From: Squalus acanthias
Taxonomy: Eukaryota
Assembly: GCA_030390025.1 (NCBI GenBank)
Contig: CM059431.1
Coordinates: 119,228,001 to 119,292,000 of the forward strand
Direction of reading: 5' to 3'
Length of the DNA stretch: 64,000 bases
Below are positions 3,623-28,745 of the stretch, one piece after another; the first letter of the stretch is position 1, and every line of letters starts with the position of its first letter. The translations under genes were made by a program, and so were the position numbers. The notes under the pieces are model-generated. The model was not told the origin of the DNA and searched no databases. It worked only from the letters and a program-made list of their open reading frames with translations.

Positions 3623-3929
3623 CCCCACCTGACGTAGAGTCATCCAGACTCGAGTCGTCGTTGGCTTGTTCTCTTTACACAGATGCGGCCGGACCTGCTG
3701 TGTTTTCCAGCAATAAAAGTTTTTTGTTTTCCATACAGACCCCAGCATCTGCCACATTGTCTTTGATGTAATGTTTTGCTGACTGACCTGTTTGGACACC
3801 ATCCACACCTTTGATTGCCGTGATTGTCTCTCTGCCGAGGTGTGATAAAGGGCAGTTGGAAAGATTAACTGTAATCATCTGGCTGTGTTCTCTGACTATA
3901 TATGCTGTGCCTATATGTATCTCTTCACT

Positions 3930-3966
3930 TCACCTGACGAAGGAGCAGCGCTCCGAAAGCTTGTGA
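3930..3966 (+). ncRNA. Minimal (dimeric-type) hammerhead ribozyme in Penelope pLTR
   Basis: tcac-CTGACGA-aGGAGcagcgCTCC-GAAA-gc-TT-gtga: stem I tcac/gtga, intact core, stem II hairpin, palindromic AGCT stem III. Confidence 0.8.
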
Positions 3967-6297: not shown

Positions 6298-6697
6298 GGG
6301 TACAGTAGCATAGTGGTTATGTTACTGGATTAGAGGCCTGGATTAATGATTCAGAGACGTGAGTTCAAATCCCACCACAGGCAGCTGGGGAATTTAAATT
6401 TAATTAATTAAATCTGGAATTAAAAACTAGTATCAGTAATGGTGACCATGAAACTGCGGATTTTCGTAAAAAACCATCTGGCTCACTAATGACCTTTAGG
6501 GAAAGAAATCAGCCGTCCTTACCCGGTCTGGCCTATATGTGACTCCAGACCCACAGCTATGTGGTTGACTCTTAACTGCCCTCTGCGGTTCATGAAGGCA
6601 GCTCACCACCACCTTCTCAAGGGCAATTGAGGATGGGCAATAAATGCTGGCCTTGCCAGCGATGCCCACATCCCATGAACGAATAAATAAAAAAAAA
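6298..6697 (+). mobile_element. tRNA-derived SINE sharing the 3' tail of the local CR1/L2-group LINE
   Basis: A-box-like tagcatagtggtta and B-box gagttcaaatcc. The tail matches 955-1058 and ends in poly(A). It interrupts gtctttga|aactgggg, which is intact in the paralogous copy at ~4635-4650. Relatives at 39429-39830 and 46990-47200. Confidence 0.8.
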
Positions 6698-8648
6698 CTG
6701 GGGGTCTTGGTCCGACCAGATCTGTTCTGTGAACCCAGCATCCTTTCTCAAGTTGCAATAAGTGTGGTGATGATTCAAGTTCTCTCCAAGAATCTTTTAA
6801 TATAAAAATGATTAATATTAATTCTAGAATCTGTAACTAGAATAAAGTGGGACTATTTTTGTGACTATAATTATAATTAATTTGAATATATTTGTAATTA
6901 TTGAAATTTTTTTGAATGACTTACCTTTAATATTAAATTGTTCTTTTCCTTCCTTTCCCCTATTTACATGGACTAAAGTCACTCACAGTGTCAGCTACCA
7001 ACTCCAGCCCCTCCCACAGTAACTCCACTGATGATGTGTAACCAGGGGCATGAACCTGTCGCCAGGTGACATCACAAAGGTGCCAGCAGCCAATCACACG
7101 GCAGCCAGGAACTATGTCACAAAGCAGCCCAACCCCCTCCCATTCAAGGGGTTACATGGCCACATGGCCAGGCTCTGCTCCTGGTGTGCAGTCTCATTGG
7201 GTATGAACGCAGGTTGTACAATCAGTCCTGTCTGTGACCCTCGCTTCATGGAATAAAATACCAGGCAGGCCATGTTAGCAGCTGAACATCATAACTGTGC
7301 TCCAGCTCCAAGACTACCCATGAGTAGCACCACAGGAGATCGCTTAAAATATATTATAAATATTCTGCTCCAGATGTAGTAGTTACTTTTGTTCAAATTA
7401 GTGTACACTCCAAAAATTACACCTTCCATCATTGCAAATTGCTTTTATCAGTCTTCTTTCAAGGTAATTAATTGTCTCAAAGCTTTTTAAATGGAGGTTT
7501 TATTTTGTAAAATTCTACTTCACTGAATCTTCCCCCATACTTCAAGCGTGAAGCAATTCGATTCATCTATAATTATTTGCTGTTAAGCCTCAAAACACTG
7601 AAAAAAGCTGAAGATAGCTGACTATCAGGATACTTCTTCTGCGTAAGTTGGGGACGTCACATGCTCTCATTGAAAAGCCTCACGGTATCTGCAGTATACC
7701 TTCATTTTTTGTTTTCACAATATTTTGTATGTTTTTATAGACTAACAATCTATACTTTCTGTTATTACATTAACTTAAGCATGGCAAAATACTGCAGATG
7801 CTGGAAATCTGAAATAAAAACAGAAAATGCTGGCAACACTCAGCAGGTCAGGCAGCATCTGTGGAGAGAGAAACAGGGGGGGAATTTTCTGGGGGGGGGG
7901 TCAGCGGGTGCGATTGGTGGTGGGTCGGGTGTGTAAATGGATTTTTTTGACACCAGATCGGGACCCTACTGTCAACCCACTGCCACACGCGTTCCCCAAA
8001 TGTCGAGTCTGTCAGCGTTGAGCAGACCTGACACAGCAGCGGGGGAGGGAATTAAGGTCATTATGACCTTGTTAACAAAGCATTAAGAACTATTTTCAGC
8101 TCACCTTCAGAGTCTACCAGGTCATCCATGGGATCCACGCTGCTCGGGGATCACGTCAGGTAAGCAGGGTGGGAGTTGAATGATCATGGAATGATCTCAT
8201 TACTTGACAGCTGTAAATGTGCTATAAAAGCTCCCATTTCACAGCTGTTCACTTTCCAAGCTCAGAAGCTGTTGCTTACTGCATTTGGAAGACAGATTGA
8301 GCTTTATGCAGGTTGCAAGTGTTTGGAGCAAACTCTCTATTAAGTGTCACCTCATTGGAACAACCTCTCTCACTATTGACAGATCACTTCTGTCATCTCA
8401 AGTTCACCTGCCGACTATTACATCAGAATGGGTACGGTTTATACTGTCTCACCATGGTCCTCAGAATCGGACTACGATCAGCCACAACACTAGCAGAACC
8501 AGGCACACCAGCAGCACCAACAACAACACCAACCTTCTCCGCAATCAACTGATGCTGCACAGGACACAGGGCATCAGCACCCGAGCACATTGTTGCCCGG
8601 GACGCCAGGGATGGTCTCACCATGGCCAGATTTACTTCATTTGACGCC

Positions 8649-10292
8649 TGTAAGGGGTTTCGGTTCGTAGGGTGCTTGTGCGGGGTTAGGCCTTCGTTGC
8701 CTAATACTATTGCTTGCTCTGGTCGCCAACCAGCCTTGTTGCAATAAGCACCTGTGAGTGGTTCGACCCACTCGCCCTTACGGTTCTAACACTGGACTTA
8801 GGTGCGAGAGCAGTAATGCAGAGAAAAACTCAAATAGACCCGGTTGAATAGTACGAAATGGAAATCTTTATTGCATAACGTCCAAAATCATGAAGTACAT
8901 GTCATAGGCACAAATTAATGACAGTACAAGTATACATACATTCATAAAACTTGGTCTAGGGTAATGAGGAACGCACGGCACATCGTAAAAAGGGGAACAC
9001 ATTATATTTATCCTTAATAAAATCTACCCTCCCCTATCAATACCTACACTAATCTAGATTTGTAGGATCGAGGAAACATGCTCACCACTCGTGATACTTC
9101 GGAGAATTTTAAACGAGGCACTCGGCTTGTTTCGCTGCAACACCTGACTGTCACGTGTTGGAAGGGGTCTCTGTACCCCACTTGTTTATCTTCTCTGCTC
9201 CGGCTAGCAGGCTGGGCTCCCCGTTGTCATGAAGAACTCGACAGTGCTCGGGGCCCGGTTCGAAGAAGAGTCTTCCTGTGTCCGACACCGGTTGTCGGTA
9301 GAATTCAAAGAAGAGTCTTTGACCAGTTGATGCAGTAACCTATAGAGTTCAAAAATGGTCTATATATTTTTGGGCGCGGTCGGGGTTTACTGACCGCGGC
9401 GGCACGTGGATTCTTCTTCTTCTCTTCTCATCTCGTCTCTTCGGGCCTTCGGGTCCGGACACCGTTTACCGACCCTCGGGATGGTGCACCCGGTCACTGG
9501 CCTCCGTTGAGGCGGCTCGTTCCAAATTGAGCTCCACCCAACATAGGAGAATAAAAGTTCAGCCCGCGTCCAGAGTCAGTTCAAACGAATCAGCCCCGGA
9601 AGGATCAGAGGAATAAGAGAGTTCAGCAGCCAGCAGCGAGATAAGAGAGTCAAGAGACCGATGGACATTTGTTCACTATAGTTATAGTGCTGTGTTCCCT
9701 TATCTCCCGCCCAAATCTTAATGTTCATCCTTTGTAAAATCTTGGCGCTCAAAATTCCCAGTATGGGGTGATTCTTGTTTGTAATGGGTTTCGGTAGCAC
9801 CTTAAACTGGCCAACTACCCGTTAATGTTTTTCCCATTGTCGAACCGGCTAGGAGCCTCCCTGGCGGTGTTTTGGGGGCCTCCGAATACTTGTGTAAGTA
9901 CCCGAGAATGGCTCTCTCATTGTAGAGCCGTGGGGAATTTGCGTATTGATGTGTCTGGATGGGCCTTCGATTGCCCATTACAATGGTCCTTACTTGTGCA
10001 TGGAAAATGATTCCAGCACTTATATCTTTGCTATTGTGTCAAATGCAGACAGGTTGCATCCTGTCTTTATCAGTGTTTGCTGCGTATTAACCAATCTTAT
10101 CCTGAAATGTTTATTCGAACGCCATCTTGTCTGCCCACTGAAAATTCTGGAAGCTTCTGCCACGAGGCACGGCGCCCATTTTACAGGCTTCTGTGTCCTG
10201 TTTAATCATGACAGCATTTCGTTGAAATAAAACTGATGAAACAAATCTGCTTTATTTCGTTATTTCGAATCGCGATAATTGCGAATTTTACA
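8649..10292 (-). mobile_element. Solo LTR, 1644 bp (copy 1), 4-bp TSD cgcc
   Basis: Termini TGTAA...TTACA; cgcc at 8645-8648 and 10293-10296. Colinear in reverse complement with 24151-25816. Minus-strand TATATA at 9361-9366 and AATAAA at 8867-8872. Confidence 0.9.
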
Positions 10293-10767
10293 CGCCGTAC
10301 ACCCTGGCTGCCACATGATGTGCCAGGTTGGCACCACCCCACAGCAACACCATAAAGCACCCCTACAATGTCCAAGCCATTCCTTTCACACTCATCACCA
10401 TTGCGGAAGGTACCATTATGTCTCACCATTCACTGCATCTCACTAAGCCACTTCCAAAGGTGCACACAAATCTGTCCAAGAATGGAAAGTGTTGAAAATA
10501 AAGGTTTCAATGTTTGACAGCACATTAACAGAAACTTTACATGAACATTGCATAAAACACTCAAGCGCCTACCCTTGTGTGTTGTTAGTTTGTATGCTTG
10601 CACTAGGATGAGGGTGAGTGTGACGGGTGGCTAGTGAGATGGTGGAAGTGATAATGTAGATAGAGAGGGATGGGTGGAGGTGCAAGATAAGTTGGTGTGA
10701 GTAAGGATGTGCAGGAGTAGGGGATGTGATGAGAGGCACAGCAGGATGAGATTCAGCATGCTAATGT

Positions 10768-10985
10768 TTTGTGATCTACTGAGATCATTGAAAGGTTTGA
10801 GTCACTGCAGCCTGGTCCTCCTGATGACATCCCTGCTTGTGCCCTCCTGTGCAATGTGTAACCAGGCTGTGTTGGTCTCCCGGGGAGGTCTCTTCCACCC
10901 ATTGGAAGGGAAGAGAACCTTCCTGCGTGCTGTGACTCCCATCCTAAGCATATGGAGGGAGTCATTGGAGAGCCTGGGTGCAGTG
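10768..10985 (-). pseudogene. Harbinger Myb/SANT-domain exon remnant
   Basis: APRLSNDSLHMLRMGVTARRKVLFPSNGWKRPPRETNTAWLHIAQEGTSRDVIRRTRLQ*LKPFNDL aligns by eye with the Myb/SANT exon 1 at 27607-27843. Confidence 0.75.
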
Positions 10986-13900
10986 CTTGTCAGTGTTTGC
11001 AGCACCTCAATGCTGTAGAACACTGACAGCACAAATGTCCAAATCAATTTGTGCATGGTCCCTTTAAGGAAAGCAGCTGATGACGTGTCATCAAATGGCG
11101 TCATCAGACCTGCTTCCTTCAATTGGCCGGCAAATGCGCTGGACGGGCTTAACAAGCCCAAGCAGGGGAAAATCATTTTGGACAGCAGGTTGGAGCCAGC
11201 AGCGAGGCCGGGACCCACCACTTACGTCGCCCACCACAGACCCTCCGAGCTTGGTAAAATCCAGCCCAACATTTCAGGTCGATGACCATTCCTCAGAACT
11301 AGAAGATATTAGAGATGTACATTATTTCAGCAAATATGGAGCTAGGGAAAATTGAGGGAAGCAAAAGGACAAAGGGGAATGTCTGTGATAGGGTGGAGGG
11401 CAGGAGTGATTAAATGGCAAAAGTTATAATGGTGCAAGGCAAAAGAGAGTGATAATGGGAGAGGTAAAGAAACAAAAGATGGGTCCCGAGAAGGTGTACA
11501 TGGTTACAGAAGAATAGCAGAGTGGTAGGGAAGCAGTAAAAATCTGGCAAAGAGGAGAAAGCTCCCATTGGCCTGAGAAGCTCATATCATGTTTGGCAAT
11601 AAAACGTTAAGCCAATAAGGAGGAGATATTTAAATGTCGAAATTGCATGATGTGTATCTTGAAAATCTGGGAATGGAGAGATGTACTAATGGGGCTGTAC
11701 CTGGAACTGCTGAGTTTCCGCCTCTTTTGAACTGGACAGGAAATCTCAAGCCGATGGAGGGGAGGCAGATGCTTCCACTGCTCGCTCCCTTACATCTCAG
11801 CACTAGATGACCGCGTGAAAGTTTTCATGGGCTACAATGGTTGTCCCAGTGGATACACCCCGAATGCAAGTGGGCCCAAGCACTGAGAAATTAAACGTTC
11901 ATCGATTTTCAGAGCGATCGATTATTTTTCAATTTGAGACCTGCATTGAAGCATACTAAAACTTTTAAACTGTCTCTACAATTTGGCCTGATATGCCTTT
12001 TGTGCTGATCTTCAGAGCTCCAATATTCCGATGAACCAATAGCGAGGATGTCCTGTTGTGCTATGACAGGCATGGGCACTCATCCCCATTATTTAAATTA
12101 TCCTATCCCCGGGATTTGGGTCAGGGTCACAGCCAGATCAGAGTGGCTAGTAGAAGTTCCACCCGACTAAACCTCTGGTGGCCCCACACACGTTTTATGC
12201 TTCATTCTTGAATTCTGGTGATAAAATTTAAAGCCTTAAGGTTTAATTCTAATCACCTAATAGAAATGTAGGGTTATTTAATGTCCTTCAATGACTAGTC
12301 TTGAATTGATGAATACCCTACAGGGCACCAGCAAGGAAAATTAATAAGCACCTGCCATTTCTATGCAGTAATTTTTTTTTAATTCAAGTTTTATGATCCA
12401 CCGATGCCAGGGATGTCACTGAACGGCTGCAGGACATTCTGAGGGGTGTAGGGAGAACAGCCAGAGGTCATGATCCATATCGGTATCAATGACATAGGTA
12501 GAAAGAGGGATGAGGCCCTACAGGCAGATTTCAGGGAGCTAGGAAAGAAATTAGAAAGCAGGACTGCAATGGTAGTAATCTCCAGATTACTCCCGGTGCC
12601 ACGAGCTAGCGAGTATAGAAATAGAAGGATAGAGCAGATAAATGCGTGGCTGGAGAGATGGTGCAAGAGGGAGGGCTTTAGATTCCTGGGACATTGGGAC
12701 CAGTTCTGGGCGATGTAGGACCTGTACAGGCCGAACGGGTTGCACCTCCACAGAGCCAGGGCCAATATGCTCGTGTCGGGGTGTGGTGGGGGGCGGGGGG
12801 GGGGAGCTTTGCTAGTGCTGTTGAGGAGGGTTTAAATTTATTTGGCAGAGGGTTGGGCACCAGGATGTAGCATTAGAAAGGCAAAACAAGGTGCACAAAG
12901 GATTGGGAGAGACAGATGGCAATAAAATAAGAAATACTACGGTGTTAGGTGGGGTCAGACTAAGAGAGAATACAAGAAAGTCTAAGATATGTTTGCAGTG
13001 CATGTGTGTAAATGCACGAAGCGTGGTAAATAAGGTTGGTGAGCTGCAGGCACAAATAGTCACATGGGAATATGGTGTTGTGGCAATAACAGAGACCTGG
13101 CTCAAAAAAGGGCAGGATTGGGTATTAAATATTCCTGGATATAAGGTGTTCAGGAAAGATAGGGAAGGAAGAAAGAAGGTGGGGTAGCAGTATTGGTTAA
13201 GGAAAATATTACAGTGCTGGAGAGAGAGGATGTCCTGGAGGGGTCGAGGACAGAATCTATTTGGTTAGAGTAAAGAAACAATAGAGGTGCCATTACACTT
13301 CTAGGTATATTCTATAGGCCAACAAGTACTGGGAAGGATATAGAGGAGCAAATTTGCAGGGAAATTACAGAGAGGTGCAGGAGTAATTATCCTAATATAG
13401 ACTGGGATAGTAATAGTGTAAAGAGCAGAGAGGGGGAAGAGTTTCTGAAGTGTGTTCAGGAGAACTTTCTTGATCAATATGTTTCCGGCCCAACGAGGAA
13501 GTAGGCATTGCTGGATCTGGTTCTGGGGAATGGTGTGGGTGAAGTGGAGCAAGTGTCAGTAGGGGAACATTTAGGGAACAGTGATCATAGTATCATAAGG
13601 TTTAGATTAGCTCTGGAAAAGTACAGGGAGCAATCTGGAGTAAAAATACTTAATTGGAGGAAGGCCAATTTCAGTGAGTTGAGAATGGATCTGACCCGGG
13701 TAAATTAGAATCAAATTTGGCAGGCAAAACTGTAATTGCATTTAAAGAGGAGATGATTCGGGTACAGTCAAGATACATTCCCACGAGGGGAAAAGGTAGG
13801 GCAAGCAAAGTCAGAGCTCCCTGGATGTCGAAAGAGAGTAAAATGAAGCAGAAAAAAGGGGTGTATGACAGATGTCAGGTTTAGAATACAAGTGAGAACC

Positions 13901-15106
13901 AGGCTGAATATAGAAAGTTCAGAGGGGAAGTGAGAAAGGAAATAAGATGGGTAAAGAGAGTATGAGAATAGATTGGCAGCTAAAATAAAAGGTAATCCAA
14001 AAGTCTTCTATATGCATATAAATAGTAAACGGGTAGTAAGAGGAGGGGTGGGACCAAGTAGGGACCAAAAAGGAGAACTACGCATGGACACAGAGGGCAT
14101 GGCTGAGGTACTAAATGGATACTTTGCATCTGTCTTTAACAAGGAAGAAGATGCTGCCAAACTCATAGTGAAAGAGGAGGTAGTTGAAATAACGCATGGG
14201 ATAAAAATTGATAAAGAGGAAGTACTAGAAAGGTTGGCTGTACTTAAAGTAGATAAGTCACCAGGACCAGATAGGATGCATCCTAAGATGCTAAGGGAAA
14301 TAAAGGTGGAAATTGCGGAGGTACTGGCCATAATTTTCCAATCCTCCTTAGATACAGGGGTGGTGCCAGAGGACTGGAGAATTGCAAGTGTTCAAAAAAG
14401 GGTGTAAGGATTAAACCCAGCAACTACAGGCCAGTCTGTTTAACCTCAGTAGTGGGGAAGCTTTTAAAAATGATAAACCGGGCCAAAATTAACAGTCACT
14501 TGGGCAAGTGTGGATTAATTAAGGAAAGCCAGCACGGATTTGTTAACGGCAAATCGTGTTTAACTTACTTGATTGAGTTTTTTGAGGTAACAGAGAGGGA
14601 TGATGAGAGCAATACGGTTGATGTGGTGTACATGGACTTCCAAAAGGCCAGATAATATGTTTGTCAGCAAAGTTGAAACCCATGGAATAAAAGGGACAGT
14701 GGCAGCATGGATACGAAATTGGCTAAGTGACAGGAAACAGAGAGTAGTGGTGAATGGTTGTTTTTCGGACTGGAGGAAGATACACAGTGGTGTTCCCCAG
14801 GGGTCGCGACAAGGACCATTACTTTTCTTGATATATATCAATGACTTGGACTTGGGAGTACAGGGCACAATTTCAAAATTTGCAGATGACACAAAACTTG
14901 GAAGTATAGTGAAAAGTGAGGAGGACAGTGATAGATTTCAAGAGGACATAGACAGGCTGGTGGAATGGGCGGACACGTGGCAGATGAAATTTAACGCAGA
15001 AAAGTGTGAAGTGATACATTTTGGTAGGAAGAACAAGGAGAGGCAATATAAACTAAAGGATACAATTCTGAAGGGAGTGCAGGAACAGAGAGACCTGGGG
15101 GTATAT

Positions 15107-16794
15107 GTGCAAGAAATTCAAAGACCTCAGTCGGGTGGTCAAGGTAAGTACATGCTTCAATAGCTCCTACATTCCAGCATCTGAACCTCAGTCTGCGCAC
15201 ACTGCGCAAACAACCACAGCCCCACCACTCACCCACCAAACATCTTCACCTACTCAAACTCACATCCACATCTCACACCTTGCCTACAATCCCAGCTATT
15301 CAACGACAGCAGCAATATCTCCCAAACTCATAGCTGGACTCTGACTCAAATACATTTGTTTCTCTTGCAGGCCCACAATAGGAGGGAGCAGCAGAGAACA
15401 GGCGGGGGTGATGCGCAGCTCCAGCAGCTCTCAGACCTTGAGGAGCGAGTGCTGTGACTCATTGGGCAGCAGGTGGTGGGCGCCGTGGCCGCTGGCGATG
15501 TCGAACCCGTTGAGGGCAAACACGGTATCTTCAGCCCCTCTCCTTCTCTCATCCCACTTCCCCCTCACACCACAAACCTTTCTCACTTTCCACCTCCTGA
15601 GAATGTCTGCATTCCTTGCTCCATTCCTGCCCCACTGCCCTCACTTCAACGCAAGTGTTGTGCATTTATGCTTTCAGATAATCGGCAACCAGATGACCAG
15701 CCTAACCCTGAGCCCCCCACTGAGAGTGAGGAACGAGAAGAGGAGGAGGAGCAAAGCACCGCATCACTGCATCTCTCACTCACAGGTCCACCTCAGATAC
15801 TGGCACTACGCGATCTTTAGAGGCAAGTTTTGTAGAGGGCTCTGCACTGGGTGATGCACTGGGGACGAGTGGGCTGCAGCAAGGCCAGGGGGAAAGGGTA
15901 GCTTGGGAGCCAGAATCCCTGGAGGGCGAGTTCGCACGCGAGTTCTGCTGCACAGGACTCAGATGAGGACCTCGATGGGGAGGCATTCACAAGAAGGGTG
16001 ATGGCCATGCACACCGAGATGTTAGATGCAATGGCAAGGGTGCCCGAGAGCCTCTCAGCAATGGTAAGGAGCGTGGAGGAGTCCGCCTCCAATATTGCAC
16101 AGAGCTCTGCGTACACCATGGAGCGCATCATTTCCACTGTGCAGAGGATAGTGGACTCCCAGAGAGACCATGCAGATCCAGACCTCATGACGCGTGTCAT
16201 GGGCAATGTGGCAGCTTCCATTGCAGCACAGGCGGAAGCCACGCAACATCTTTGTGCTGTAATGCAGTCAGTGGTTGCTGCCATTGAGTCTCAGACTGCT
16301 CTCATGCAGTCTCAGCTTGATGCCACGCAAGCTCTGACTGCTGCTATCGTCGCTGGGTCCACACAGTCCACCAGGGATCTCACAGTTTTGCAGCAGGTCA
16401 GCAAGCTGTGCCCCAGCAGATTAGTAGTGATGCTGAAGTGCTGCCCTGGGGGAGTGGGAGTGGGTCAGTGGAGCAGGAACCTGCTGTCCTCTCTCAGGAT
16501 GACAGCATTCCTGATCTCACCACTGCCACACTGCCATTGCACTTGTTGCTGCCTGTCATCCAGCCAGCCCAGACTGCCGCTGCCCAGCCTGAAGTGGTGC
16601 AGTCTACAGCCGGGCCTTCCAGGCACAGAGCTGGTCGAGGGCGTCCTGCAAATCCATCTGTAGTCTCCCACACGGACACTCAGCAGCCTTCCACCAGCCC
16701 TGCTGCAGCCACTGGGGAGACACTACATAGGAGCACTAGATTAGTAAAAGGCACTGTAAAGAGGGGAGGCAAGGGTTTGCACAAGGGTGATTAG
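15107..16794 (+). pseudogene. Harbinger Myb/SANT partner gene (exon 1 end to 15143, exon 2 15371-15524, exon 3 15678-16794)
   Basis: KKFKDLSRVVK|gtaagt; ttgcag|AHNRREQQRTGGG; ctttcag|exon 3 with helical MHTEMLDAMARVPESL. Contains frameshifts and stops. Confidence 0.8.
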
Positions 16795-16959
16795 TCAATA
16801 TTGTTGTTGTATATATGTGGTTAATGGTTTTTGATAAATTTATTACTGGAATGTTGCACATTTGGTGCTGTGTCTCATTTCAGTTCCGGGGTGTGGTATG
16901 GAATCACAAAGTGATGGAATGATGGCGACGTGCTCAGCAAACAGAACGAAGACTCGAAG

Positions 16960-18161
16960 TCACTGGAAACGAAGTCTGATGAGACGGTCACGGACCGACC
17001 TTGCAGAACACTGACTGAGTGGCTGCCTCCTCCGTCACTAATATTCGTCCTCCTGTTCCTTCTGCTCCTCTTCTTCCTCCTCCTCCTCGTCCTCGTCCTC
17101 ATCCTTGTCCTCATTCTCCTCCTCCTCCTGAGGTGGTGGAGTTATGCCTGGTAGCAATGGCTGCGCCCTCATAATGGCCAAGTCGAGCAGCATGCAGCAG
17201 ATGACGACGAAAAGTGACATCTGCTCAACCGAGTACTGGGGGGCTCCTTCCGAGTGACCAAGGCAGCGGAACCATTGCTTGAGCACTCTGATAGTCTGCT
17301 CAATGATGTTCCTGATGGCAGCTTGGCTCTCATTATATGATTGCTGGCCAGGAGTGTTGGGGTTGCAGAAGGGGGTCATGAGCCAGGTGGAGAGCAGACA
17401 GCCCTTGTCTCCCAGCAGCCAGCCACGAGCTTGATCTGGTGGCTGGAATAGATCTGGCACACCAATCTGGCACAGGATGATGGCATCGTGGCTGCTGCCA
17501 GGATAGTGGGCATTGACGGTCAGGATTCGCCGTGTGTGGTCGCACACAACTGCACATTAAGTGAGTGGTAGCCTTTGTGGCTACAGAATACCTCAGGATT
17601 GTTATGAAGTGCCCGCAAAACGACGTGGGTGCAGTCAATGGCGCCCTGCACCATGGGGAAGCCCGCTATCCTGGCAAAGCCACATTCACGCTTGCACTGC
17701 TTCTCTCTGGTCATGGGGGTGTTAATGTAGTCCCTTCTCCTTCTGTACAGAGCATCTGTGACCTGGAGGATGGAACAATGGACGGCAAACTGGGAGATGT
17801 TGGAGATGTTGCCTGTCACACACTGGAATGATCCGCTGGCATAGAAATTGAGGGCGACGGTGACCTTGACTGCCACTGAGAGAGCCGTGGTGGTCCTGAT
17901 CTCAGGCTCGAGGTCTGGCTGCAGGAGGTGGCAGAGCTGTGTGGCCACGTCCTTGCTGAAGCGGAGCCTTCTAACACACTGGTCCTCAGTAAAATTCATG
18001 TAGGAGAACTGCTGCTGGAATACCCTGGGTGGGTAAGGCCTCCTGTTGAGCGCCCTGTTGGCCCTCCCACCTCTGGCCACATTTTGCACTCATTCTCTGT
18101 GCCTCAGTTGCCTCTGACGTTGACGTTGGAGAGCGAGGTCCAGTGCCAGTACAGCCTCCAT
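16960..18161 (-). pseudogene. Harbinger/PIF DDE transposase (HARBI1-like), frameshifted
   Basis: [77 protein letters not shown], acidic tail, then ARSVRDRLIRLRFQ*. Confidence 0.93.
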
Positions 18162-19274
18162 GAAAGGATACAAATATTGCACTTTCAAATCTCCCCTCAA
18201 TGAAACTGAAGAATCTTTATGTACCAGAACACTCGTTAAAATGCAGAACGCTCAAATCGGTCAAAAGGCCCCTTTGCCTGTGTGAAATTAACAACGCAGC
18301 ATTATTGGCCGACAAAAACTAAACCGGATGTGGACGCCTTTAAATGGCGCTCCTCCAGCGGACATCGACTGAAAGCCGCCTCCTCTACCTGTCGTTGTTA
18401 ACGGCAGGCGCAAAAGCAGGGGGGCTAGAGGGAATTTTTCATCCGGGGCGCAACTGGGGCGCTGCGCATGGCAATGACATCATGAGAACCGGGTGCAGGG
18501 GATCGGGGCGCAACGTCTTATCGCTGCCACAAAACTCCCGCCGAATTCACCGGGAGGCGTTGATATTGCCGTGCACGGTCGCAAACCCATTTGCGCCCCG
18601 TTAGCACCCCCAGAGGCGTTAACGGGATTATGCAAAGGAGCCCAATTTCTATCCCATTGAGTACAAAGCATGGAAGTTATGATGAACCTTTATAAAACAC
18701 TGGTTCGGCCTCAACTGGACTATTGTGTCCAATTCTGTGCATCACGCTTTAAGAAGGATGTGAAGGCCTCAGAGAGGGTGCAGTAAAGATTCACAAGAAT
18801 GGTTCCAGGGATGAGGGACTTCAGGTACGTGGATAGACTGGAGAAGCTGGGGTTGTTCTCCTAAGAGCAGAGAAGGTTGAGAGGAGATTTGATAGAGGTG
18901 TTCAAAATCATGAGGGGTCTAGACAGAGTAGATAGAGAGAAACTGTTCCTATTGTTGGAAGGGTCGAGAACCAGAGGACACAGATTTAAGGTGATTGGCT
19001 GCAGAACCAAAGGGAACATGAGGGGAAACTTTTTTACACAGCGAATGGTTAGGATCTGGAATGCAATGCCAGAGAGGGTGGTGGAGGTAGATTCAATCGT
19101 GGCTTTCAAAAGTGAATTGGATAAGTACCTGAAGGAAAAATAATTGCTACGGGGAAAGGGTGGGGGAGTGGGACTAGCTGAAGTGCTCTTGCAGGGAGCT
19201 GGCACGGGCTCGACGGGCTGAATGGCCTCCTTCTGTGCTGTAAGCATTCTATGATGCTCTGATTTTAATACTGC

Positions 19275-19495
19275 TGCACTTTTTCGAATAATGTCATAGG
19301 ATCTTTTACATCCACCTCAGAGAGTAGACTTGGTTTAGCATCGTATCCAAAAAATGGCATGGCTGACATTGCAGCACTCCCTCAGTACTGCACTGGAGTG
19401 CTGGCCTAGATTATGTGTTCAAGCCTGTGGACTAGGGCTTGAACACATGATCTTCTGAGTCAGTGGTAAGAGTGCTACCACTGAGTCAAGTCTGA
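19275..19495 (-). mobile_element. Deu-domain tRNA-derived SINE fragment (SacSINE1-like)
   Basis: The reverse strand reads ...tctaggccagcactccagtgcagtactgagggagtgctgca...ggtggatgtaaaagatcc. A related piece lies at 38280-38445. Confidence 0.6.
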
Positions 19496-19789
19496 CAGCT
19501 AAAGTGAATGCCTAAAGCTAATACTTGCTTTAGTGAAAATCTGAGGACTAAACTTTAATTGTCTTGTCCATAATAACATGTATGCTGTCTACACTCTGAT
19601 CAAATCTCTGATTTCCAATGTTTAAATCTGTTTATTGCAGTTCAGCTGTAGAAAGCATTCAGTTCCTGGACTCCAATTCAGTACCATTAGAGGCAATTAT
19701 CAATTATGTTTCTGCTTCCCATAGCACTATTTGAAAAAGAGCAGCAGTGTTCTCCTGGTATCCTATTTAATATTTATCTCTTAACCAAC

Positions 19790-20820
19790 ACCCTGGCCAC
19801 AGTCCGAGGCTGAACCAGACTGTTTGCAACCTCGGTGTCCTATTAACCCTGAGCTGAGCTTCTGATCCCATACCCTCTCCATCACCAAGACTACCTACTT
19901 CCACCTAGTAATATCGCCTGTCTCCGCCCCTGCCTCAGCCTATCTGCTGCTGGAACCCTCATTCATGCTTTTGTTACCTCCAGACTCAACTATTCCAATG
20001 TTCTACTAGCCGGCCTCCCACCTACCACTCTCCATTAACTTCAGCTCATGCAAAACTCTGCATGCCGGTATCCTAACTCGCTCTTATCAACCCTGTGTCG
20101 CTGACCTTCACTGACCCCTGGTCCCACAACATCTCAAATCTAAAATTCTCATCCTTGTTTATTTTTAATTCATTCATGGGATGTGGGCATCGCTGGCAAA
20201 GCCAGCATTGATTGCACATCCCCCTAATTTCCCTTGAGAAGCTGGTGGTGAGCCACCAGGATGGTGTGTGACTTGGACGGGAACATGCAGGCGATGGTGT
20301 TCCCATGCGCCTGCTGCCCATGTCCTTCTAGGTGGTAGAGGTCGCGGGTTTGAGAGGTGCTGTCGAAGAAGCCTTGGCTGCAGTGCATCGTGTAGATGGT
20401 ACACACTTCAGCCAAGGTGCGCCGGTGGTGGAGGGAGTGAATGTTAAAGGTGGTGGATGGGGTGCCAATCAATTGTGTTAAAATCCCTGCCCCTCCATAT
20501 CTCTGTAACCTCCTCCAGCCCTATAACCGCTCCCTCCCCCCACCCCCGAGATCTCTGCACTCCTCCAATTCTGTGCATCCCTGATTTCCTTTGCCCAACC
20601 ATTAGTGACCGTGCTTTCAGCTCCCTAGGCCCTAAGTTGTGGAATTGCCCCCCTAAACCTCTCCACCTCACTCCGTTCCTTTAAGGCACTCGCTTGACCT
20701 ACCTCTTTGACCAAGCTCTCTTTATGTGGCACCGTGTCAAATTTTGCTCCTGTGAAGCGCCTTGGGATGTTTTACTATGTTAAAGATGCTACAGAAATGC
20801 AAGATGTTGTTATTGTAAGT
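19790..20820 (+). mobile_element. L2 LINE 3' fragment with nested reverse CR1/L2-group LINE piece (20160-20472)
   Basis: L2-type LIHAFVTSRLNYSN coding sequence at ~19955-20000 and tail ctcctgtgaagcgccttgggatgttttactatgttaaag. The nested piece translates IGTPSTTFNIHSLHHRR. Confidence 0.75.
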
Positions 20821-20920
20821 AATGTTTTTATTCTGACTAATTTTTAGGGATGTGTGTTTAGACCGAGGGCCCACTGACAAGCATAGTGATGTATGTTCAG
20901 ATCCAATGGCCCGTTTTTTT

Positions 20921-21097
20921 GTCATTCTGCAGAGGCTTCAATTTTCCTTTATTGTAGAGCATTTCTTTCTTTTTGTCTCCTGTGTCAACAAAGAACCGGC
21001 TGTCATCTGTCTTTTCAGACACAAGACGACCCACCGTCCTTTCCTGCCGCCGCACATCTTCCGGAAGCTCTTCCACTTTGGTAACATTGCTGTGTGT
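20921..21097 (-). pseudogene. NOP53: Intronless fragment of NOP53/GLTSCR2 (ribosome biogenesis protein), N-terminal region
   Basis: The minus frame reads THSNVTKVEELPEDVRRQERTVGRLVSEKTDDSRFFVDTGDKKKEMLYNKGKLKPLQND. This matches the conserved NOP53 motif FLEDVRLQER..GG..SE....LFFVDTG...KPL. An A7 run follows. Confidence 0.75.
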
Positions 21098-21500
21098 TTT
21101 TTTTTAAAACAATGAATTCCAAACTATCTTTTTTAATTAGAATTTTGTTCCTCTTATATACGATGCCATCAGTCCCTCTGGTGCCCACCGGTCGCAGAAA
21201 TCCTTAAGCGTACCGGAGGACACCCCGTTGTGCTCCCTCTCCAGGGACCCCCCAGACATGGACATAGAATCGTAGAATGGCTACAGCACAGAAGGAGGCC
21301 ATTCGGCCCGTCGAGCCCGTGCCGGGCTCGTTGGCATAGCCGTGGAAGAGAGGCAGGCAGCTCCATCGATCGTGTTCCACCTGGATCTGTTAATGGCCAC
21401 CTTGGCTACGCCCAGACCTACAAGGAGGTCCTCTGACCTGCCTGCTCCCCTCCGCCATGGGTGGCCAAAGATCGGGAGCGTGGGACTGAAGTGCAGCCAG
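21098..21500 (-). mobile_element. 3' end of an L1-Tx1 LINE with poly(A), containing a small CR1 tail insert (~21264-21328)
   Basis: LHFSPTLPIFGHPWRRGAGRSEDLLVGL.VAKVAINRSR, then ...SGTLKDFCDRWAPEGL, typical of a Tx1-clade ORF2 C-terminus. A-run at 21097-21105. Confidence 0.65.
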
Positions 21501-22956
21501 TAAGTAATGGTTTCACCTCGACTCCACGAACACACTGTTCAACTTTGCTCCCTGGCAGAATAGATCTTTTGCCCATTGTAGAATCCGCTTGATTTCTGTT
21601 CCATTGAAAATCGGTCAGGTTCTATAAAGAGCAGGCCACTCAATCTGACCGGTAACTGCCCAGGTGATGAAACTGAAAACTATCCTTAATGACGCTAAAG
21701 ATTATGGTAATGGCTTTTATAGTACCTGACTCACTAGAAATTGCTTTTATTCTGAGATAGCTCAGAGCTTTTGATCAGTTTGACTCATGGATCATTTTAT
21801 TTTTCAATTGTCTGTGTCATAATCAGGTCAGACAATAATAAGTATTGCCAAAGACTTTATGAACTTTCATGCTTTGTAGAAGACGAGAATATAGACATTG
21901 ATCTTTATTTTACTCATACAGCAACAGCCACCTGCTTTATGACTTCATATTTAAGTAAAATTACTGATAACTAAATGAAAGCTAGCTAATTGAATTCATG
22001 CTCAGTCAAAAATGCTTCAAAAATTGCATAATAATTATAACTAATAGTAGGAATACTTAACATTGCCATGATATTCTTTTATTTCCAGCTTATTTGATTT
22101 AGTCAGATGTTAATCAACATCATGTCAGTGCAGACTCACTTCATTAAATTTCAAACAAACAGCCCTGAAGATATTTTTAAGTCAGTTTTATGTCTGAACT
22201 ATAACCTGCCTATCTTTTTTCTTCTTTTTTTAATCATAGTGTCACCACTGTCATAGAAACCAGTCACTTCCTGATCTGCAATTGATATTTTTATAGTCCT
22301 CTGATATTAACTTTAATTTGAAAGAACATGTTTGCTGTGGTTTTAGAGCTACAGTAATATGATAAGGTATGATGAAAGCAGTTCACCATGACAGACCTGA
22401 CAGGTCTGAACATCAGAACTCATTTATTGGGAAGAAAAGGCAATGGGGGGAAAATTTGGTTGCTTTGCGCCTCCCGTTAGCACCCTAAGAGGGCACTAAT
22501 GGGGCGCAAAGCAACTAGCGCCCGGGCGCGGCGATGTTTGCGCCGTTCGTGAAATTGACCAGAGTTTTTGCGGCAGCGCTAAACTCTACCACCATGATCT
22601 CCTGCGCCTGCAGATCGTGACGTCAGTCGAGCGTGCAACGCACTGGTGGCGCCCCGGACCGGTTATTGAGTGGCGCACCCTTCCTTTCCGCCTGCCACAA
22701 GCAACGACAGGGCGAGTGGAACATTTTGCAGTCGGAAAGGAACTGGGGGAGCGCTATTTAAAGGCACCCTCTTCCTGCCTTTTTTTGTGGGAGACATTTT
22801 TGCACCACACATTCTGATAGAGAGAGAGAGATTCTGAGAGAGAGCGAGAGAGACTTCTGCAGAGATTCAACGCTGTGTGAAGTAGTTTTGGCTACTGAGC
22901 AGCACTTTGCAGGTTCTTTTGGATTTGACCTTCATTACTTCGATTGTCAAGAGACT

Positions 22957-24086
22957 GTGGGGGTTGCACTGATTCGGGGCATCGTCCTGCGCCTGCAGAA
23001 TCAGAGGCATCAGAGACGCAGAGAGAGAGTGGCAATCATGGCCTGAGAAAGGAGGGCCAACAGGCCTGTGCACAGGAGACCTTACCATCCCAGGGTATTC
23101 CGGGAACAATTCTCCTACATTAAATTGTCTGAGGAGCAGTGTTTGCGCAGGCTGCGCTTCAGCAAGGAGGTGGTCACTGAGCTCTGCCACCTGCTGCAAC
23201 CAGATCTGCAGCCTCAACTGAGGACCAGGACGTCTCTGTCGGTGGCAGTGAAGGTTACAGTGGCTCTGAATTTTTATGCCACCGGCTCCTTTCAAGCAGC
23301 TACTGGGGACATCGCCAATATTTCCCAGAGGTGACAAATGCCCTCTATAAAAGGAGATGCCAGTACACCTCTTTCCCGATGACCCGGGTCAAACAGTATA
23401 AACGCGCATTGGGCTTTGCGAGGATAGCGGGCTTCCCCATGGTGCAGGGCGCCATTGACTGCACGCATGTGGCATTGCGGGCACCGCAGAGAATGCAGAG
23501 GTTTTCCAAAACCGCAAGGGGTTCCACTCCTTAAATGTGCAGTTGGTCTGTAACCACAGACAACTGATACTCGTCGTCAATGCCTGCTATCCTGGCAGCA
23601 GCCACGATGCTTTCATCCTGTGCCAGACTGGTGTGCCAGACCTTTCCAGGCACCGCATCAGCCAAGTGGTTGGCTCCTCGGTGACAAGGGTTATCCACTC
23701 TGCACCTGGCTGATGACTCCACTCCGTAACCCCAACACCCCTGCCGAACTGCGTTACAATGAGACCATATTGCTACCAGGAACATAATTGAGCAAACGAT
23801 CGGCGTGCTCAAGCAACGGTTCCGGTGTCTGGACCACTCAGGAGGAGCACTGCAGTACTCTCCTGAGCGAGTCTCCCTCTTCATAGTTGTTTGCTGCATT
23901 CTTCATAACCTTGCAATCCTCAGGACCCAGCCAATGCCACCAGGGATTGGTGCACCACCAGAGGAGGAGGAGGAAGATGAGGAGGAAGAGGAGGATGATC
24001 AGCAACAGCACCAAGGCGGGAGGGAGGCCCACAATGTTGAAACTGCAAGGGCCGTCCGTCAACGGCTGTTAACAAGCCGCTTCTAG
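22957..24086 (+). pseudogene. Harbinger DDE transposase, frameshifted
   Basis: [63 protein letters not shown], acidic tract, ARAVRQRLLTSRF*. Small deletion near 23329. Confidence 0.93.
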
Positions 24087-24150
24087 GCCCCTCCTCAGAA
24101 GATGGCTTCTGGCATGGGGAACATGGAGAACAACATGATGGAAAGCAACC

Positions 24151-25816
24151 TGTAAAGTTTCGCAATTATCGCGATTCGAAATAACGAGATAGAAGCAGAT
24201 TCGTTTGATCAGTTTATTTAAACGAAATGCTGCCATGATTAAACAGGACACAGAAGCCTGTAAAATGGCTGCCGCGCATCGTGGCAGAAGTTTCCAGAAG
24301 CGCAGTGGGCAGACAAGATGGCGTTCGAATAAACATTTTCGATAAGCACTGATAAAGACAGGATGCAACCTGTTTGCATTTGTGACAATAGCAAAAGATA
24401 TGAGTGCTGGAATCGTTTTCCATGCACAAGTAAGGACCATTGTACTGGGCAATCGAAGGCCCATCCAGACATATCAATACGCAAATACCCCCACGGCTCT
24501 ACAATGAGAGAGCCATTCTCGGGTGATTAAACAAGTATTCGGGGGCCCCAAAAAACCCAGCCAGGGAGGCTCCTAGCCGGTTCGACAATGGGGAAAACAT
24601 TAACGGGTAGTTGGCCAGTCTCAGGTGCTACCGAAACCCGTTAAAGACAAGAATCACCCCATGCTGGGAGTTTTGAGCGCCAATATTTCACAAAGGACAA
24701 ACATTAAGATTTGGGCGGGAGATAAGAAAACACAGCACTATAACTATAGTGAACAAATGTCCATCGCTCTCTTATCTCTCCTATCCTTATCCTCGGGTAT
24801 CGCTCTGCTGGACGAGCAGCCTTCTGTGTTTCTCTGGACTCTGTCGACTAATGTTGGGTGGAGCTCAATCGGGACGAGCCGCCTCGACGGAGGGCGCGAA
24901 ACTGGGTGCACCAACCCAAGTCTCGGTAAACGGTGTTCTGGACCCGAAGGCCCGAAAAGACAAGACAAGTTCAGAAGAGAAGAAGAAGAGTCCACGTGCC
25001 GCCGCGGTCAGTAAACCCTGACCGCGCCCGAAAATATATAGACCATTTTTGAACTCTATAGGTTGCTGCACGAACCAGTGAAAGACTCTTCTTTGAATTC
25101 TATCGACAACCGGTGTCGATACAAGGAGACTCTTCTGTGAATTCTACCGGTAACTGGTGTCGGTCCAGGAAGACTTTTCTTTGAGTTCTACAGCCAGGCC
25201 CGAGCACTGTCGAGTTCTTCATGACAACGGGGAGCCCAGCCTGCATGCCGGAGCAGCGAAGATAAACAAGTGGGGTACAGAGACCCCTTCAAACATGTGA
25301 CAGTCGTGCGCTGCAGCGAAACGAGCCGAGTGCCTCATTTTAAAATTCTCCGAAGTATCACGAGTGGTGAGCATGTTTCCCGATCCTACAAATCTAGATG
25401 TAGTGTAGGTATTAATAGGGGAGAGTGGTTTTATTAAGGATAAAGTATAATGTGTTCCCCTTTTTACGATGTGCCGTGCATTCTTCATTACCATAGACCA
25501 AGCTTTATGAATGTATGTATACTTGTACTGTCGTTAATTTGTGCCTATGACATGTACTTCATGATTTTGGACGCTATGCAATAAAGATTTCCATTTCGTA
25601 CTATTCAACCGGGTCTATTTGAGTTTTTCTCTGCATTACTGCTCTCGCACCTAAGTCCAGTGTTAGAACCGTAAGGGCGAGTGGGTCGAACCACTCACAG
25701 GTGCTTATTGCAACAAGGCTGGCCGGAGACCAGAGCAAGCAATAGCATTAGGCAACGAAGGCCTAACCCCAGCACCAGCACCGTCTGCGATAAAGCACGA
25801 CACAGAACCCCTTACA
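24151..25816 (+). mobile_element. Solo LTR, 1666 bp (copy 2), 4-bp TSD aacc
   Basis: TGTAA...TTACA; aacc at 24147-24150 and 25817-25820. TATATA at 25035-25040 and AATAAA at 25580-25585 give a U3-R-U5 layout. YY1-like motifs aaaatggctgcc and aagatggcg in U3. Confidence 0.92.
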
Positions 25817-26077
25817 AACCTGCAACCCCTATAGCCGGCCAAGGCAGCAGTGATTCCAATGGCCAAACATGTACATTTTGAAAACAACAACTTTTTTATT
25901 TTACAAACTCTGTGTGTGTCATTTATTCATGACAAAGTAATAGAAGAAAACACAACCAATCATTAATTAACATAACTGGTTTTCACAACCTGGAGATAAA
26001 TGCCAAAACACGAAGCAAAAGTTATCAGACGAATCTCGCACTTTAATAAAGACATTCCCAACATTTTTTGAGACCTC

Positions 26078-27843
26078 CTACTTTTTGCCCTTTGAGGGTG
26101 ATCTCCATCCCCTGCGCACTTCCCCCCTTCCCACCCTTCTGCTCCTCCGTAATGGGGCCCCAGTGGCTGCAGCAAGACTGGTGGAAGGCTGCTGAATTTC
26201 AGATCCTGAGACTACAGATGCCCTTGAAGGACACCCTCGACCAGCTCTGAGCATGGAGGTCCCGGCTGCAGACTGCAGCAATTCTGCTTGGGCAGCAGCA
26301 GTCTGGGCTACAGGCGGTGGCAAGTGCAATGGGGAAGTGACAGTGGTTGGAGCAGGAATGCTGTCATCCTGAGAGAGGACAGCACCTCCCTGCTCGACCG
26401 ACACACTGGTAGTCCCACGGGGCAGCACCTCACCATCTGGAGCAATCTGCTGGAGCACAGATTGCTGGCCTGCTGCGGCGCCGTGAGAGCCCCGGGGCAA
26501 TGTGGTCGAACCAGCGAGAATGGCAGCAGTCAGTGCTTGCGTTGCCTCAATCTGAGACTGCATGAGAGCAGTCTGAGTTTGGATCACAGCAGCCAGTGAA
26601 GGAATTGCAGCACTAAGCAGTTGCCTTGCATCCGTCTGTGCTGCAGCGGAGTGCTCCACACTTCTTACCAGTCCATCAATGCTTTCGGGCACTCTTCCCA
26701 CTGCACCCATGAGCTGAGTGTGCATGTGCACCGCCTGGGTGTTCATTTCAGCGATGAGTCGCTCCTCCTCTGCGTCCAGTGCAGCAGGACTCACTGGCCT
26801 GCTCTCCCTCCGGGGAGAAGGCCCCCGAGCTTCCCTACCCCCATGGCATTGCTACAGCCCGCTGGATCCTGAAGCTTCACCCTCATCAGACCCTTCCCCC
26901 CTGCTTCCCTCCAGGGAAGACTTGGTCCCAGTGTGGGCATGGGCTCCCTCGGGAGACGTTGGCGCTGAGGCTCCGGCTTCCTCTTCTTCCTCGCCTGCAG
27001 CGTCGCTCCGACTGGCTGCTTGAGGGCCCGTCTCCTCAGCTGGTGAATCACCATCTGAAAGCAGGGAGGTACAAGAGTGGCTTTAGCGTCAGGACAGGGG
27101 GGCAGTAAGGGAGCAAGGACTGCAGCGATTTAGTAAGTTGGATTGAAAGTGTAAAAGGCTGGTGTTGTGAGGGAGAAGTGGAATGAGAGAGGAGAGAAAG
27201 CTGATGAACTTACCATTGCTGTCCCGAACGGGGTCGACCTCTCTAGCGGCGACGGGACCGATCACCTGGCTTACGACAATCCTGTGGACACGCGCCTCAA
27301 GACCACTGAGGGTTTGCAGCTCAGCTGTCCCTCCACCCATCCGTTGCTGCTGACGCCTATTATGAGATAGCTTGGCCTGCAAGAAAAAGGACACTGTCTG
27401 AGTAAATATGCAGCCATGTGCTTGCCTGATGTGCCTCCCATAGTTGAACAGCCCTTAATGTATGCAAGGTGTGGAATGTGAGTGTGTGTTTCATGAGATG
27501 GCCATAGGTCTTGGATGAGTGTTGGGCTTTGGGGTTTTTACACCCCCTGGCCATAGAGTGAGGTTGAGATGGAGGGATGGAGAGGTATTGAAAAGCAGCC
27601 ACTCACCCTGACCACCCGAGTGAGGTTGTTGAACTTTTTCCAACATTGTGTATGGGTCCTTGGCACCATTCTCTTGGAGGAGATGTGATGAGCCACCTCC
27701 CTCCACACTCTTCTGTAGTCGCGTGGCAATGGCCTCCTACCACTCTCTGGGTACAGTATTGCTCTTCGGCGCTCCACTGCACCAACCAGAGCCACCAAGG
27801 CCCGGTCGCTGAAGCGCTGAGCTCGCTCCCTGGCCCTCTCCAT
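26078..27843 (-). pseudogene. Three-exon Harbinger Myb/SANT protein gene (~458 codons; exons 27843-27607, 27376-27214, 27054-26078) with one premature TAG
   Basis: MERARERAQRFSDRALVALVGAVERRRAILYP...WREVAHHI...QCWKKFNNLTRVVR. GT-AG introns; exons of 237+163+977 nt stay in frame. The single stop is at 26852-26854, where paralogues have CAG. Confidence 0.88.
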
Positions 27844-28745
27844 AGTCTTTTGCTGCAGATTTGATGCACAGGTCTCTCCAGGCCGAGATTCAAGGCTGCA
27901 ATGAGCAGGGTGTGGCTGGAGAGCAAGTTCGACCCTTCCCTTTAAGAACTGGCCTGCGCCAGTGTGTCTGTGTTCCATTGCTAACTGACATCACCTGAGC
28001 TTCGCCCGCGCTCTGAGTTAGCGCCTCGCTCCTCGGCCTTTGCGCCTTAAGACAGGTGTGTAGTGCCTGATTTAGTGCTCCAATCACCTCCAGGGGCGAT
28101 AGAAGTCAAGTTTGCAGTCGGAGGCGATAATTTGCACCAGGCACTAAACTTTTCACCCGGCCGATAATTGCGCCCCAAACGGGGCGATACTGAATTTCTC
28201 CCCCAATGCATTTTAACGAGGTAGATTTGACTACTTTTCCCCATTCAAGGAACCAGTGAAATCTAGTTTGGTGAAAACAAGCAGTAATACATTAATAAAC
28301 AACACCTTCACACTCCTAACTTAACAGGTAGAATCCGTTATTGGTTTTATTGGAAAAGTGACTGGTTTATGACATTGCACCCGTTATTTATTTGAAAAGG
28401 AGAAGGTAGGGGAACAAAATATTGAGATCTAACCATATAGCCTATAGAGAAACAATACATGACCACTGCGGACATCCTGTAACTATCTTGAGGTACCTTT
28501 ACACTATAGAAGGGCAGCTGATGGGGAAGATGCTGCACATATATTCATTGGGTGCATTCCACTGTGCGGATAAATCCAGTTCACTTCTACCGACTACATG
28601 TTGACCCCTGAAAGTCTGGGTCTTTGATTCTGCTCTTGGGATATGGGAGCTGATATGATCAATGTGAATGTGGGGAGCTGGCGCAAGGACATTAATATCC
28701 CAACATTGGAGCTACAGAAACCCAAATATAAGATAATGTTGACAC

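Follow-up and report, generated by a model that had tools for sequence, protein, structure and literature searches.

We consider it probable that the two long inserts in the window (the whole 64,000-nucleotide stretch of Squalus acanthias DNA analysed here) are ordinary solo LTRs of a single high-copy LTR-element family nested in old, dead Harbinger elements, and that their shared position just after a transposase tail is coincidental. We favour this reading because the two target sites have no common sequence and the inserts lie in opposite orientations at different offsets from the tail, because the hosts come from separate subfamilies, one of them without a catalytic core, because Harbinger-like DNA is abundant in the window while the family is high-copy and younger than its hosts, and because a further Harbinger in the window has an empty zone at the corresponding place. 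So read, the inserts are of little import, nested solo LTRs being common.

The LTR family, which is probably an endogenous retrovirus (ERV), would have spread to high copy in this cartilaginous-fish lineage. Each insert would have integrated on its own, through an integrase whose cuts are staggered by 4 bp, as their target-site duplications (TSDs) suggest, and recombination between its two LTRs would then have removed the internal part, as ERV biology leads one to expect. The landing sites would have been Harbinger copies already old and dead, presumably because such relics fill about one third of the locus and insertions into them are likely to be neutral. The common position after the tail would be a coincidence singled out post hoc.

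Two inserts and their hosts

Copy 1 is a solo LTR of 1644 bp at 8649..10292, its minus-strand sense deduced from internal motifs, and copy 2 is one of 1666 bp at 24151..25816 on the plus strand. Both start with TGTAA and end with TTACA; TG..CA termini such as these and a TSD in the 4-6 bp range characterize solo LTRs. The TSDs differ, being CGCC for copy 1 (8645..8648 on the left, plus strand, and 10293-10296 on the right) and AACC for copy 2 (24147..24150, plus strand, and 25817-25820). The proposal in the initial annotation that the copies are two separate insertions in opposite orientation is borne out. Aligned on opposite strands, the copies are 84.9% identical over 1688 columns (blastn), with an ungapped difference of 7.8%.

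Copy 2 lies in element C (22445..28204, plus strand), a full-structure but broken Harbinger with AAT flanking it on both sides. C has the features of a PIF/Harbinger element, namely a DDE_Tnp_4 transposase and a Myb/SANT gene, terminal inverted repeats (TIRs) and a 3-bp TSD, with the ends and the AAT identified by eye. Its transposase (23018..24086, start approximate, plus strand) is split into several broken frames (DDE_Tnp_4, E 1e-9 and 3e-9) and ends in a TAG stop at 24084-24086. The Myb/SANT gene (26078..27990, minus strand; Myb_DNA-bind_5, E 1e-5) is convergent with it, and its ORF stops 261 bp past the LTR.

Copy 1 lies in element A (7876..11267, plus strand), a non-autonomous, internally deleted Harbinger of about 1.74 kb without the LTR, for which no TSD was found. 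A has Harbinger-derived ends and gene remnants, but no DDE core; ten full-length transposase queries gave no tblastn match to such a core in A below E 2. A degenerate Myb-like remnant (10760..11008, minus strand) was recovered by tblastn with the Myb ORF of C (30% identity, E 8e-9), and Pfam returned no match on it. A represents a different subfamily from C and is nearest to the sawshark proteins P0055 and P0062.

The claim that copy 1 sits approximately 15 bp past a transposase-like C-terminus in A concerns a block at 8592..8633 (plus strand) that ends in RF and is not directly followed by a stop codon. A first tail profile, built from seven of ten shark and ray transposases (the three without the block being left out), did not support the block (score 7.8, with 23 equal-or-better sites expected per window). 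A second profile took in those 45 of 156 homologues in which the block is present, as picked by a loose C-terminal pattern that had been defined on the proteins used in the tblastn search of A; it ranked the block of A fifth of approximately 128,000 positions, with 0.52 sites expected per window and 0.005 on the plus strand of A. P0055 also aligns across the place where copy 1 inserted, at 65% over 49 aa and, with element A alone as the subject, an E of 1.5e-15. The claim thus stands on the larger profile and the P0055 alignment and fails on the smaller profile, and judged from such sequence comparisons we take the predicted tail of A to be real.

Both hosts look long dead. The observed/expected CpG ratio is 0.89 and 0.90 in the two LTRs versus 0.28-0.57 in the hosts. 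A third Harbinger, element B (15108..18657, minus strand), serves as a negative case within the window, its between-gene zone of 166 bp being uninterrupted.

Position relative to the transposase tail

Copy 1 begins 15 bp past the F codon that closes the tail block of A. Copy 2 begins 64 bp past the transposase stop of C, exactly as the initial annotation had it, and 67 bp past the terminal F codon. The strict TIR-pair scan yielded one element only and did not include C, and Harbinger coverage is therefore that of the hand annotation, by which Harbinger-like DNA makes up 18.7 of 60.7 kb (~31% of the window) and the zones ~2% of the DNA. On this annotation and under uniform insertion, the probability of both inserts falling inside any Harbinger-like DNA is 0.095, that of both falling in the between-gene zone is 3e-4 (the zone being defined post hoc) and that of both falling within 100 bp after a tail is 4e-5 at face value (the landmark likewise being post hoc). 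If both inserts are taken as lying in gene-bearing Harbingers, the probability that both fall in the zone is still 0.005. For a family of 3,000-30,000 copies and a genome size taken as 4 Gb, two copies in a 64-kb window have a probability of 0.001-0.08. Against a reading by coincidence stand these low face-value chance figures, the uncommon count of two copies per window and the description of a retroelement, albeit a non-LTR one, with a preference for Harbingers (PMC4494074). GC content changes from 0.55-0.58 ahead of each insertion site to 0.30-0.35 within 300 bp beyond it.

An alternative is that a vertebrate LTR or ERV family with a high copy number in one shark lineage directs integration to the stretch behind the transposase gene in diverse Harbingers, its integration complex being drawn there by chromatin or a host factor acting as a tether and not by sequence. 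Such a preference would be loose, operating in either orientation and over tens to hundreds of bases where the GC-rich tail meets an AT-richer termination region, with dead transposons offering a safe harbour. We regard it as possible but unlikely. Either orientation and a scatter of offsets are typical of tethered targeting by Ty1 and Ty3, which the inserts resemble in both respects. Ty1 and Ty3 are LTR elements that target sites near tRNA genes (PMC6719617, in the part available). Also in favour are the location of both sites within 70 bp after a homologous landmark in two hosts that cannot be aligned, the fall in GC content at each site and the nominal chance of 4e-5 to 3e-4. Nevertheless, there are only two insertions, the landmark was picked after the fact, and the long-dead look of the hosts makes tethering linked to transcription doubtful. 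The sole Harbinger protein shown to bind DNA, according to the available part of PMC9710019, recognizes subterminal motifs and not the centre of the element, and our literature search found no LTR or ERV precedent. None of the best 15 of 548 joints listed connects an end of the LTR with a different part of C, which counts weakly against a preference since single-copy joints would not rank among them.

Nature of the inserts

Copy 2 contains a TATA-like box, a putative promoter (TATAAT, 25446..25451, plus strand), followed by a candidate poly(A) signal (AATAAA, 25580..25585, plus strand) inside the part common to two relatives. Both motifs are matched, in the same order and placement, in copy 1. 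At this motif level the inserts carry both signals in the sequence typical of a U3-R-U5 structure and have no long terminal inverted repeat, and copy 2 may be divided into a U3 of ~1.3 kb, an R of ~130 bp and a U5 of ~215 bp. The long predicted U3 is reminiscent of foamy LTRs.

Searches of the insert content were negative: Pfam found nothing meaningful on five ORFs within the insert (best E 0.09), the 136-aa U3 frame had zero Atlas matches and no homologue among longer proteins, Rfam gave 0 matches, the U5-end fold was no more stable than those of shuffled sequences (z -0.48) and exact-pattern scans with LTR motifs matched neither viral contigs nor, in two further scans, metagenomes.

It might be argued that the inserts are non-autonomous DNA transposons like Ginger1 and not LTRs, given that Ginger1 also has TG..CA termini and a 4-bp TSD (PMC6839031, in the part available) and that the inserts have no primer-binding site or internal region that would prove LTR status. 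This is very improbable. The terminal inverted repeats of a Ginger1 element are not seen in the inserts, which have just 5 bp (8 matches in the first 30 positions for copy 1), and the TATA box and AATAAA lie close to one end, arranged as in an LTR. It is this end alone that relatives share, as expected of a conserved R/U5 and a fast-evolving U3.

Target sites

No sequence similarity between the two target sites was found in either register. In TSD register, 8/24, 13/44 and 25-26/84 positions match (P 0.15-0.31), and local alignment of the zones of the two hosts gave P 0.20 and 0.77. The tail offsets differ by 52 bp (15 vs 67) and the LTR orientations are opposite. The two sites thus have neither the conserved target sequence nor the fixed position of Tx1-9_AMi. 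That an integrase recognizes a conserved Harbinger sequence in the manner of Tx1-9_AMi is suggested solely by proximity to the tail, together with the existence of such targeting in Tx1 LINEs (PMC4494074, in the part available), and we give it hardly any credence: besides the dissimilar sites, offsets and orientations, retroviral target motifs are described as weak palindromes in the accessible part of PMC4422553. The strongest form of steering, a fixed sequence target, is accordingly disfavoured, the more so as A is a non-autonomous relic.

Copy number and order of events

Contig mapping drew on four of 24 listed sequencing runs. Summed contig depth in seven bins wholly inside the LTR was 58,600-503,000, versus 13.8 and 6.84 on the unique flanking sequence. 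Although such depth does not equal copy number, it points to a family of at least hundreds and up to ~10^4 copies. No flank of another LTR copy was present among the best 15 of 548 joints, 24 of 8712 loose ends and 32 of 350,091 pieces listed, and none of those 24 loose ends lay at an LTR terminus.

At the copy 2 site, contigs from three of the four runs contain a joint, 24146>25817, that omits exactly the LTR and one TSD. In organisms B and D, contigs link the two sides of this site, although the joining contigs may be paralogues, and one contig of organism D runs from the unique flank into C, covering its first 134 bp. Depth over 24320-25329, on the U3 side of copy 2, is 0-2 in both organisms, a low cover that we counted only alongside the site-joining contigs. 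Because C is at the same locus in organism D, contigs join across the LTR site and U3 depth is 0-2, copy 2 most likely arrived after C had landed. The suggestion that the LTR rode an active Harbinger, its junction being copied to many loci, for which we found no positive evidence, is disfavoured for copy 2 by this order of events and, with the junctions of copies 1 and 2 being unlike each other, has next to no chance of being correct.

Comparison with known systems

Were a preference real, a retroviral-type integrase of a vertebrate would be directed at another mobile element, a case that our literature search did not turn up, and the family would be the integrase-using equivalent of those Tx1 LINEs whose targets are DNA transposons. 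The hundreds to thousands of copies would then offer natural material for identifying the tether.

Among host elements, C is like the Harbinger3_DR type of PIF/Harbinger (PMC9710019, as available) in its DDE_Tnp_4 transposase, Myb/SANT gene and 3-bp flanking duplication but differs in being broken, and A differs as a deletion derivative of another subfamily. With the foamy-like ERVs of fishes and sharks (PMC5210030 and PMC5512871, in part), the inserts share a 4-bp TSD, a TG start, occurrence as solo LTRs and a shark host. The 4-bp TSD is not exclusive to that group, gammaretroviruses also making one, and the inserts differ in being known here from the LTR alone, with no internal sequence in the window (primer site, polypurine tract or pol). 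Retroviral sites tend to avoid purine-pyrimidine steps at the TSD centre according to the accessible part of PMC4422553, whereas both inserts have such steps (GC and AC).

The closest parallel in position is Tx1-9_AMi of crocodilians (Kojima 2015, PMC4494074, in the part available), a non-LTR retroelement that prefers Harbingers through a target set by its endonuclease and whose insertions lie in three Harbinger families, ~300 bp from the 5' end, at targets that are ~90% identical. The inserts are likewise retroelements at a recurring position in Harbinger DNA transposons, but they are of LTR type, are central, lack a common site sequence and number two. Tx1L in Tx1D of Xenopus and Tx1-Mar and SINEU in Mariner-N4_AMi (PMC6719617 and PMC4494074, likewise in part) are alike in that one transposon is a safe harbour for another, but these are non-LTR systems documented by large numbers of copies (all but 2 of 88 truncated SINEU-3), compared with two here. 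Tethered LTR targeting, as by Ty1 and Ty3 near tRNA genes (PMC6719617, in the part available), is the sole class of mechanism that would fit sites without a common sequence; it is directed at active host genes to which factors are bound, whereas the hosts of the present inserts are decayed transposon copies.

Two independent solo LTRs inside Harbinger elements

Self-comparison of the window yielded a single long inverted pair, 8671-10292 versus 24151-25782, with 84.9% identity. The underlying LTR-like inserts are copy 1 at 8649-10292 (1644 bp, TSD CGCC) and copy 2 at 24151-25816 (1666 bp, TSD AACC), both of which start with TGTAA and end with TTACA, the terminal inverted repeat being only 5 bp long as measured on copy 1. 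Because their TSDs and their host elements both differ, the two copies are independent insertions, as the initial annotation had proposed. They differ by 7.8% in ungapped comparison (68 transitions, 54 transversions), and since only 11-12 changes per side are of CpG type, the bulk of this difference probably predates insertion. The TSD centres at 8645-8648 and 24147-24150 are purine-pyrimidine steps (GC and AC, n=2), which retroviral integration tends to avoid according to parts of PMC4422553.

Read on the + strand of copy 2, both copies carry TATAAT ~370 bp and AATAAA ~235 bp from the end, and the putative LTR layout has ~1.3 kb of U3 and ~215 bp of U5, with a short R between them. In two related organisms coverage exists only from 25330 on, reaching depths of 15,000-67,000 in two bins up to 25733, with depth 0-2 across 24320-25329; this pattern fits a conserved R/U5 joined to a lineage-specific U3. 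Protein-family and RNA-family searches of the insert returned no match. Solo LTRs are the best reading of both inserts, and it is very improbable that they are anything other than LTRs. Their family is unclassified, there being no internal sequence by which to name the parent group. A 4-bp TSD is compatible with gamma-type as well as foamy-like viruses (section 3.4 of PMC5210030), and parts of PMC5512871 describe foamy-like ERVs in sharks; the portions of PMC7947760 available to us held no TSD data for lokiretroviruses.

Within the inferred U3 of copy 2, a 136-aa open frame lies at 24604-25011 (+), and its counterpart in copy 1 consists of 81 and 62 open codons flanking one stop. The frame, which matched nothing in Pfam, the Atlas or among longer proteins, may be an accessory-gene tail extending into U3. 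In the inferred U5, a 6-bp hairpin at 25679-25696 resembles a tRNA T-arm on the reverse strand; it occurs in both copies, inside the part common to the relatives, and the fold stability of the whole U5 is not significant (z -0.48).

We examined abundance in two sequencing runs whose unique flanks are letter-identical to the window. Summed depth in seven bins within the LTR was 58,600-503,000 and that of unique flank was 13.8 and 6.84, a raw ratio of 4,000-20,000; depth is not copy number, and after division by the largest plausible overcount 137-650 LTR copies remain. The family is thus high-copy. LTR pattern scans in viral and metagenome contigs were empty, and no flank of further copies was found among the best 15 of 548 joints or 24 of 8712 loose ends.

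The host elements

Copy 1 lies in element A (7876-11267), a Harbinger with a degenerate Myb remnant and without a transposase core, in which a transposase-like C-terminus had been proposed just before the insert. This tail, a block ending in RF, was unsupported by a first profile of 7 sequences and is supported by a 45-sequence profile, in which it ranks 5th of ~128,000 positions (0.005 sites this good expected on the + strand of element A). The alignment of P0055, a sawshark Harbinger transposase, spans the copy 1 insertion point (65% over 49 aa), which supports homology and not the stop position, and a second sawshark protein, P0062, has weak matches to the start (E 0.08) and the tail (E 0.09) of the short remnant in element A. 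Together these matches establish the landmark as real and element A as an internal-deletion derivative from another Harbinger subfamily. As a gene model, the database 'HARBI1' entry P0055 is probably a mosaic: the non-autonomous Harbinger segment matched by its C-terminus is also matched, on the reverse strand, by the first 63 residues.

Element C (22445-28204) holds a DDE_Tnp_4 transposase, now broken, and a Myb gene that converges on it. The closest named homologues of the transposases are from sharks and rays, which makes a cartilaginous fish the probable host. As initially described, copy 2 starts 64 bp past the transposase stop, and it ends 261 bp short of the Myb ORF stop.

Other elements were also present. 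A further deleted Harbinger-like element at 29438-30911 has an acidic tail along with a Myb remnant in antisense, and directly ahead of its tail a short repeat at ~29895-30015 resembles 7780-7876. In element D, a Harbinger at 33054-35021, an internal deletion fuses the first half of the transposase straight to the Myb gene. A LINE with RVT_1, which we take to be CR1-type, is split by element B into 12390-15107 and 18658-19240, and at 15108 the left part of element B and some LINE sequence are gone. Two 64-bp arms at 2784-4015 are 100% complementary and spaced 1104 bp apart.

Order of events

The copy 2 site occurs empty in public contigs: the joint 24146>25817, from runs X1, X2 and X6, leaves out 1670 bases, the precise length of the LTR together with a single TSD, and a neighbouring joint is present in X1, X6 and X9. 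A contig from the related organism D links 145 bp of unique flank to 134 bp of element C, with 6 gaps and 23 differing letters. Two contigs of that run pass straight from one side of the LTR site to the other, and U3-side depth there is 0-2 versus 9.86 in unique flank. The simplest order is element C first and copy 2 later, in the lineage of organism A, although the two bridging contigs are possibly paralogues and contigs give presence, not absence. CpG observed/expected ratios (0.89-0.90 in the LTRs, 0.28-0.57 in elements A and C) would agree with young inserts in old hosts, provided the starting CpG values were comparable. That order disfavours co-mobilisation of the LTR on a Harbinger for copy 2, and such riding is judged very unlikely as a whole.

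Position within the host elements

Copies 1 and 2 are real, independent solo LTRs inside dead Harbingers. By hand annotation, Harbinger-like DNA makes up 31% of the window once the LTRs are removed, and four zones between transposase and Myb genes account for 1.8%. The chance that both insertions fall in a Harbinger is P 0.095, in a between-gene zone P 3e-4, and ≤100 bp after a tail P 4e-5, for a landmark that was picked post hoc as one of many possible, with at least 185 windows of this genome read. We consider ordinary nesting in dead Harbingers plus coincidence the probable explanation. A loose positional preference of the LTR family for this site is unlikely but deserves some weight, a judgement rather than a computation, in which the likelihood ratio is large and the prior that it has to overcome very low; GC content falls near both sites, and yeast has tethered LTR targeting (parts of PMC6719617). 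Sequence-specific targeting is highly implausible, since the two sites have no common target sequence in either register (P 0.15-0.31), the between-gene zones of the two hosts are unalignable, the inserts lie 15 versus 67 bp from the terminal F codon, and the copies are, as first noted, oppositely oriented. The Harbinger Myb protein would be ill suited to tethering an element near the centre because its binding sites are subterminal motifs (parts of PMC9710019).

No report of an LTR or ERV family targeting Harbingers was found in the literature surveyed, chiefly papers outside subscription. A known Harbinger-targeting retroelement, Tx1-9_AMi, is described in parts of PMC4494074, but it is a non-LTR element, and it inserts at one position in ~90% identical target sequence, whereas the two sites in the window have no sequence in common.
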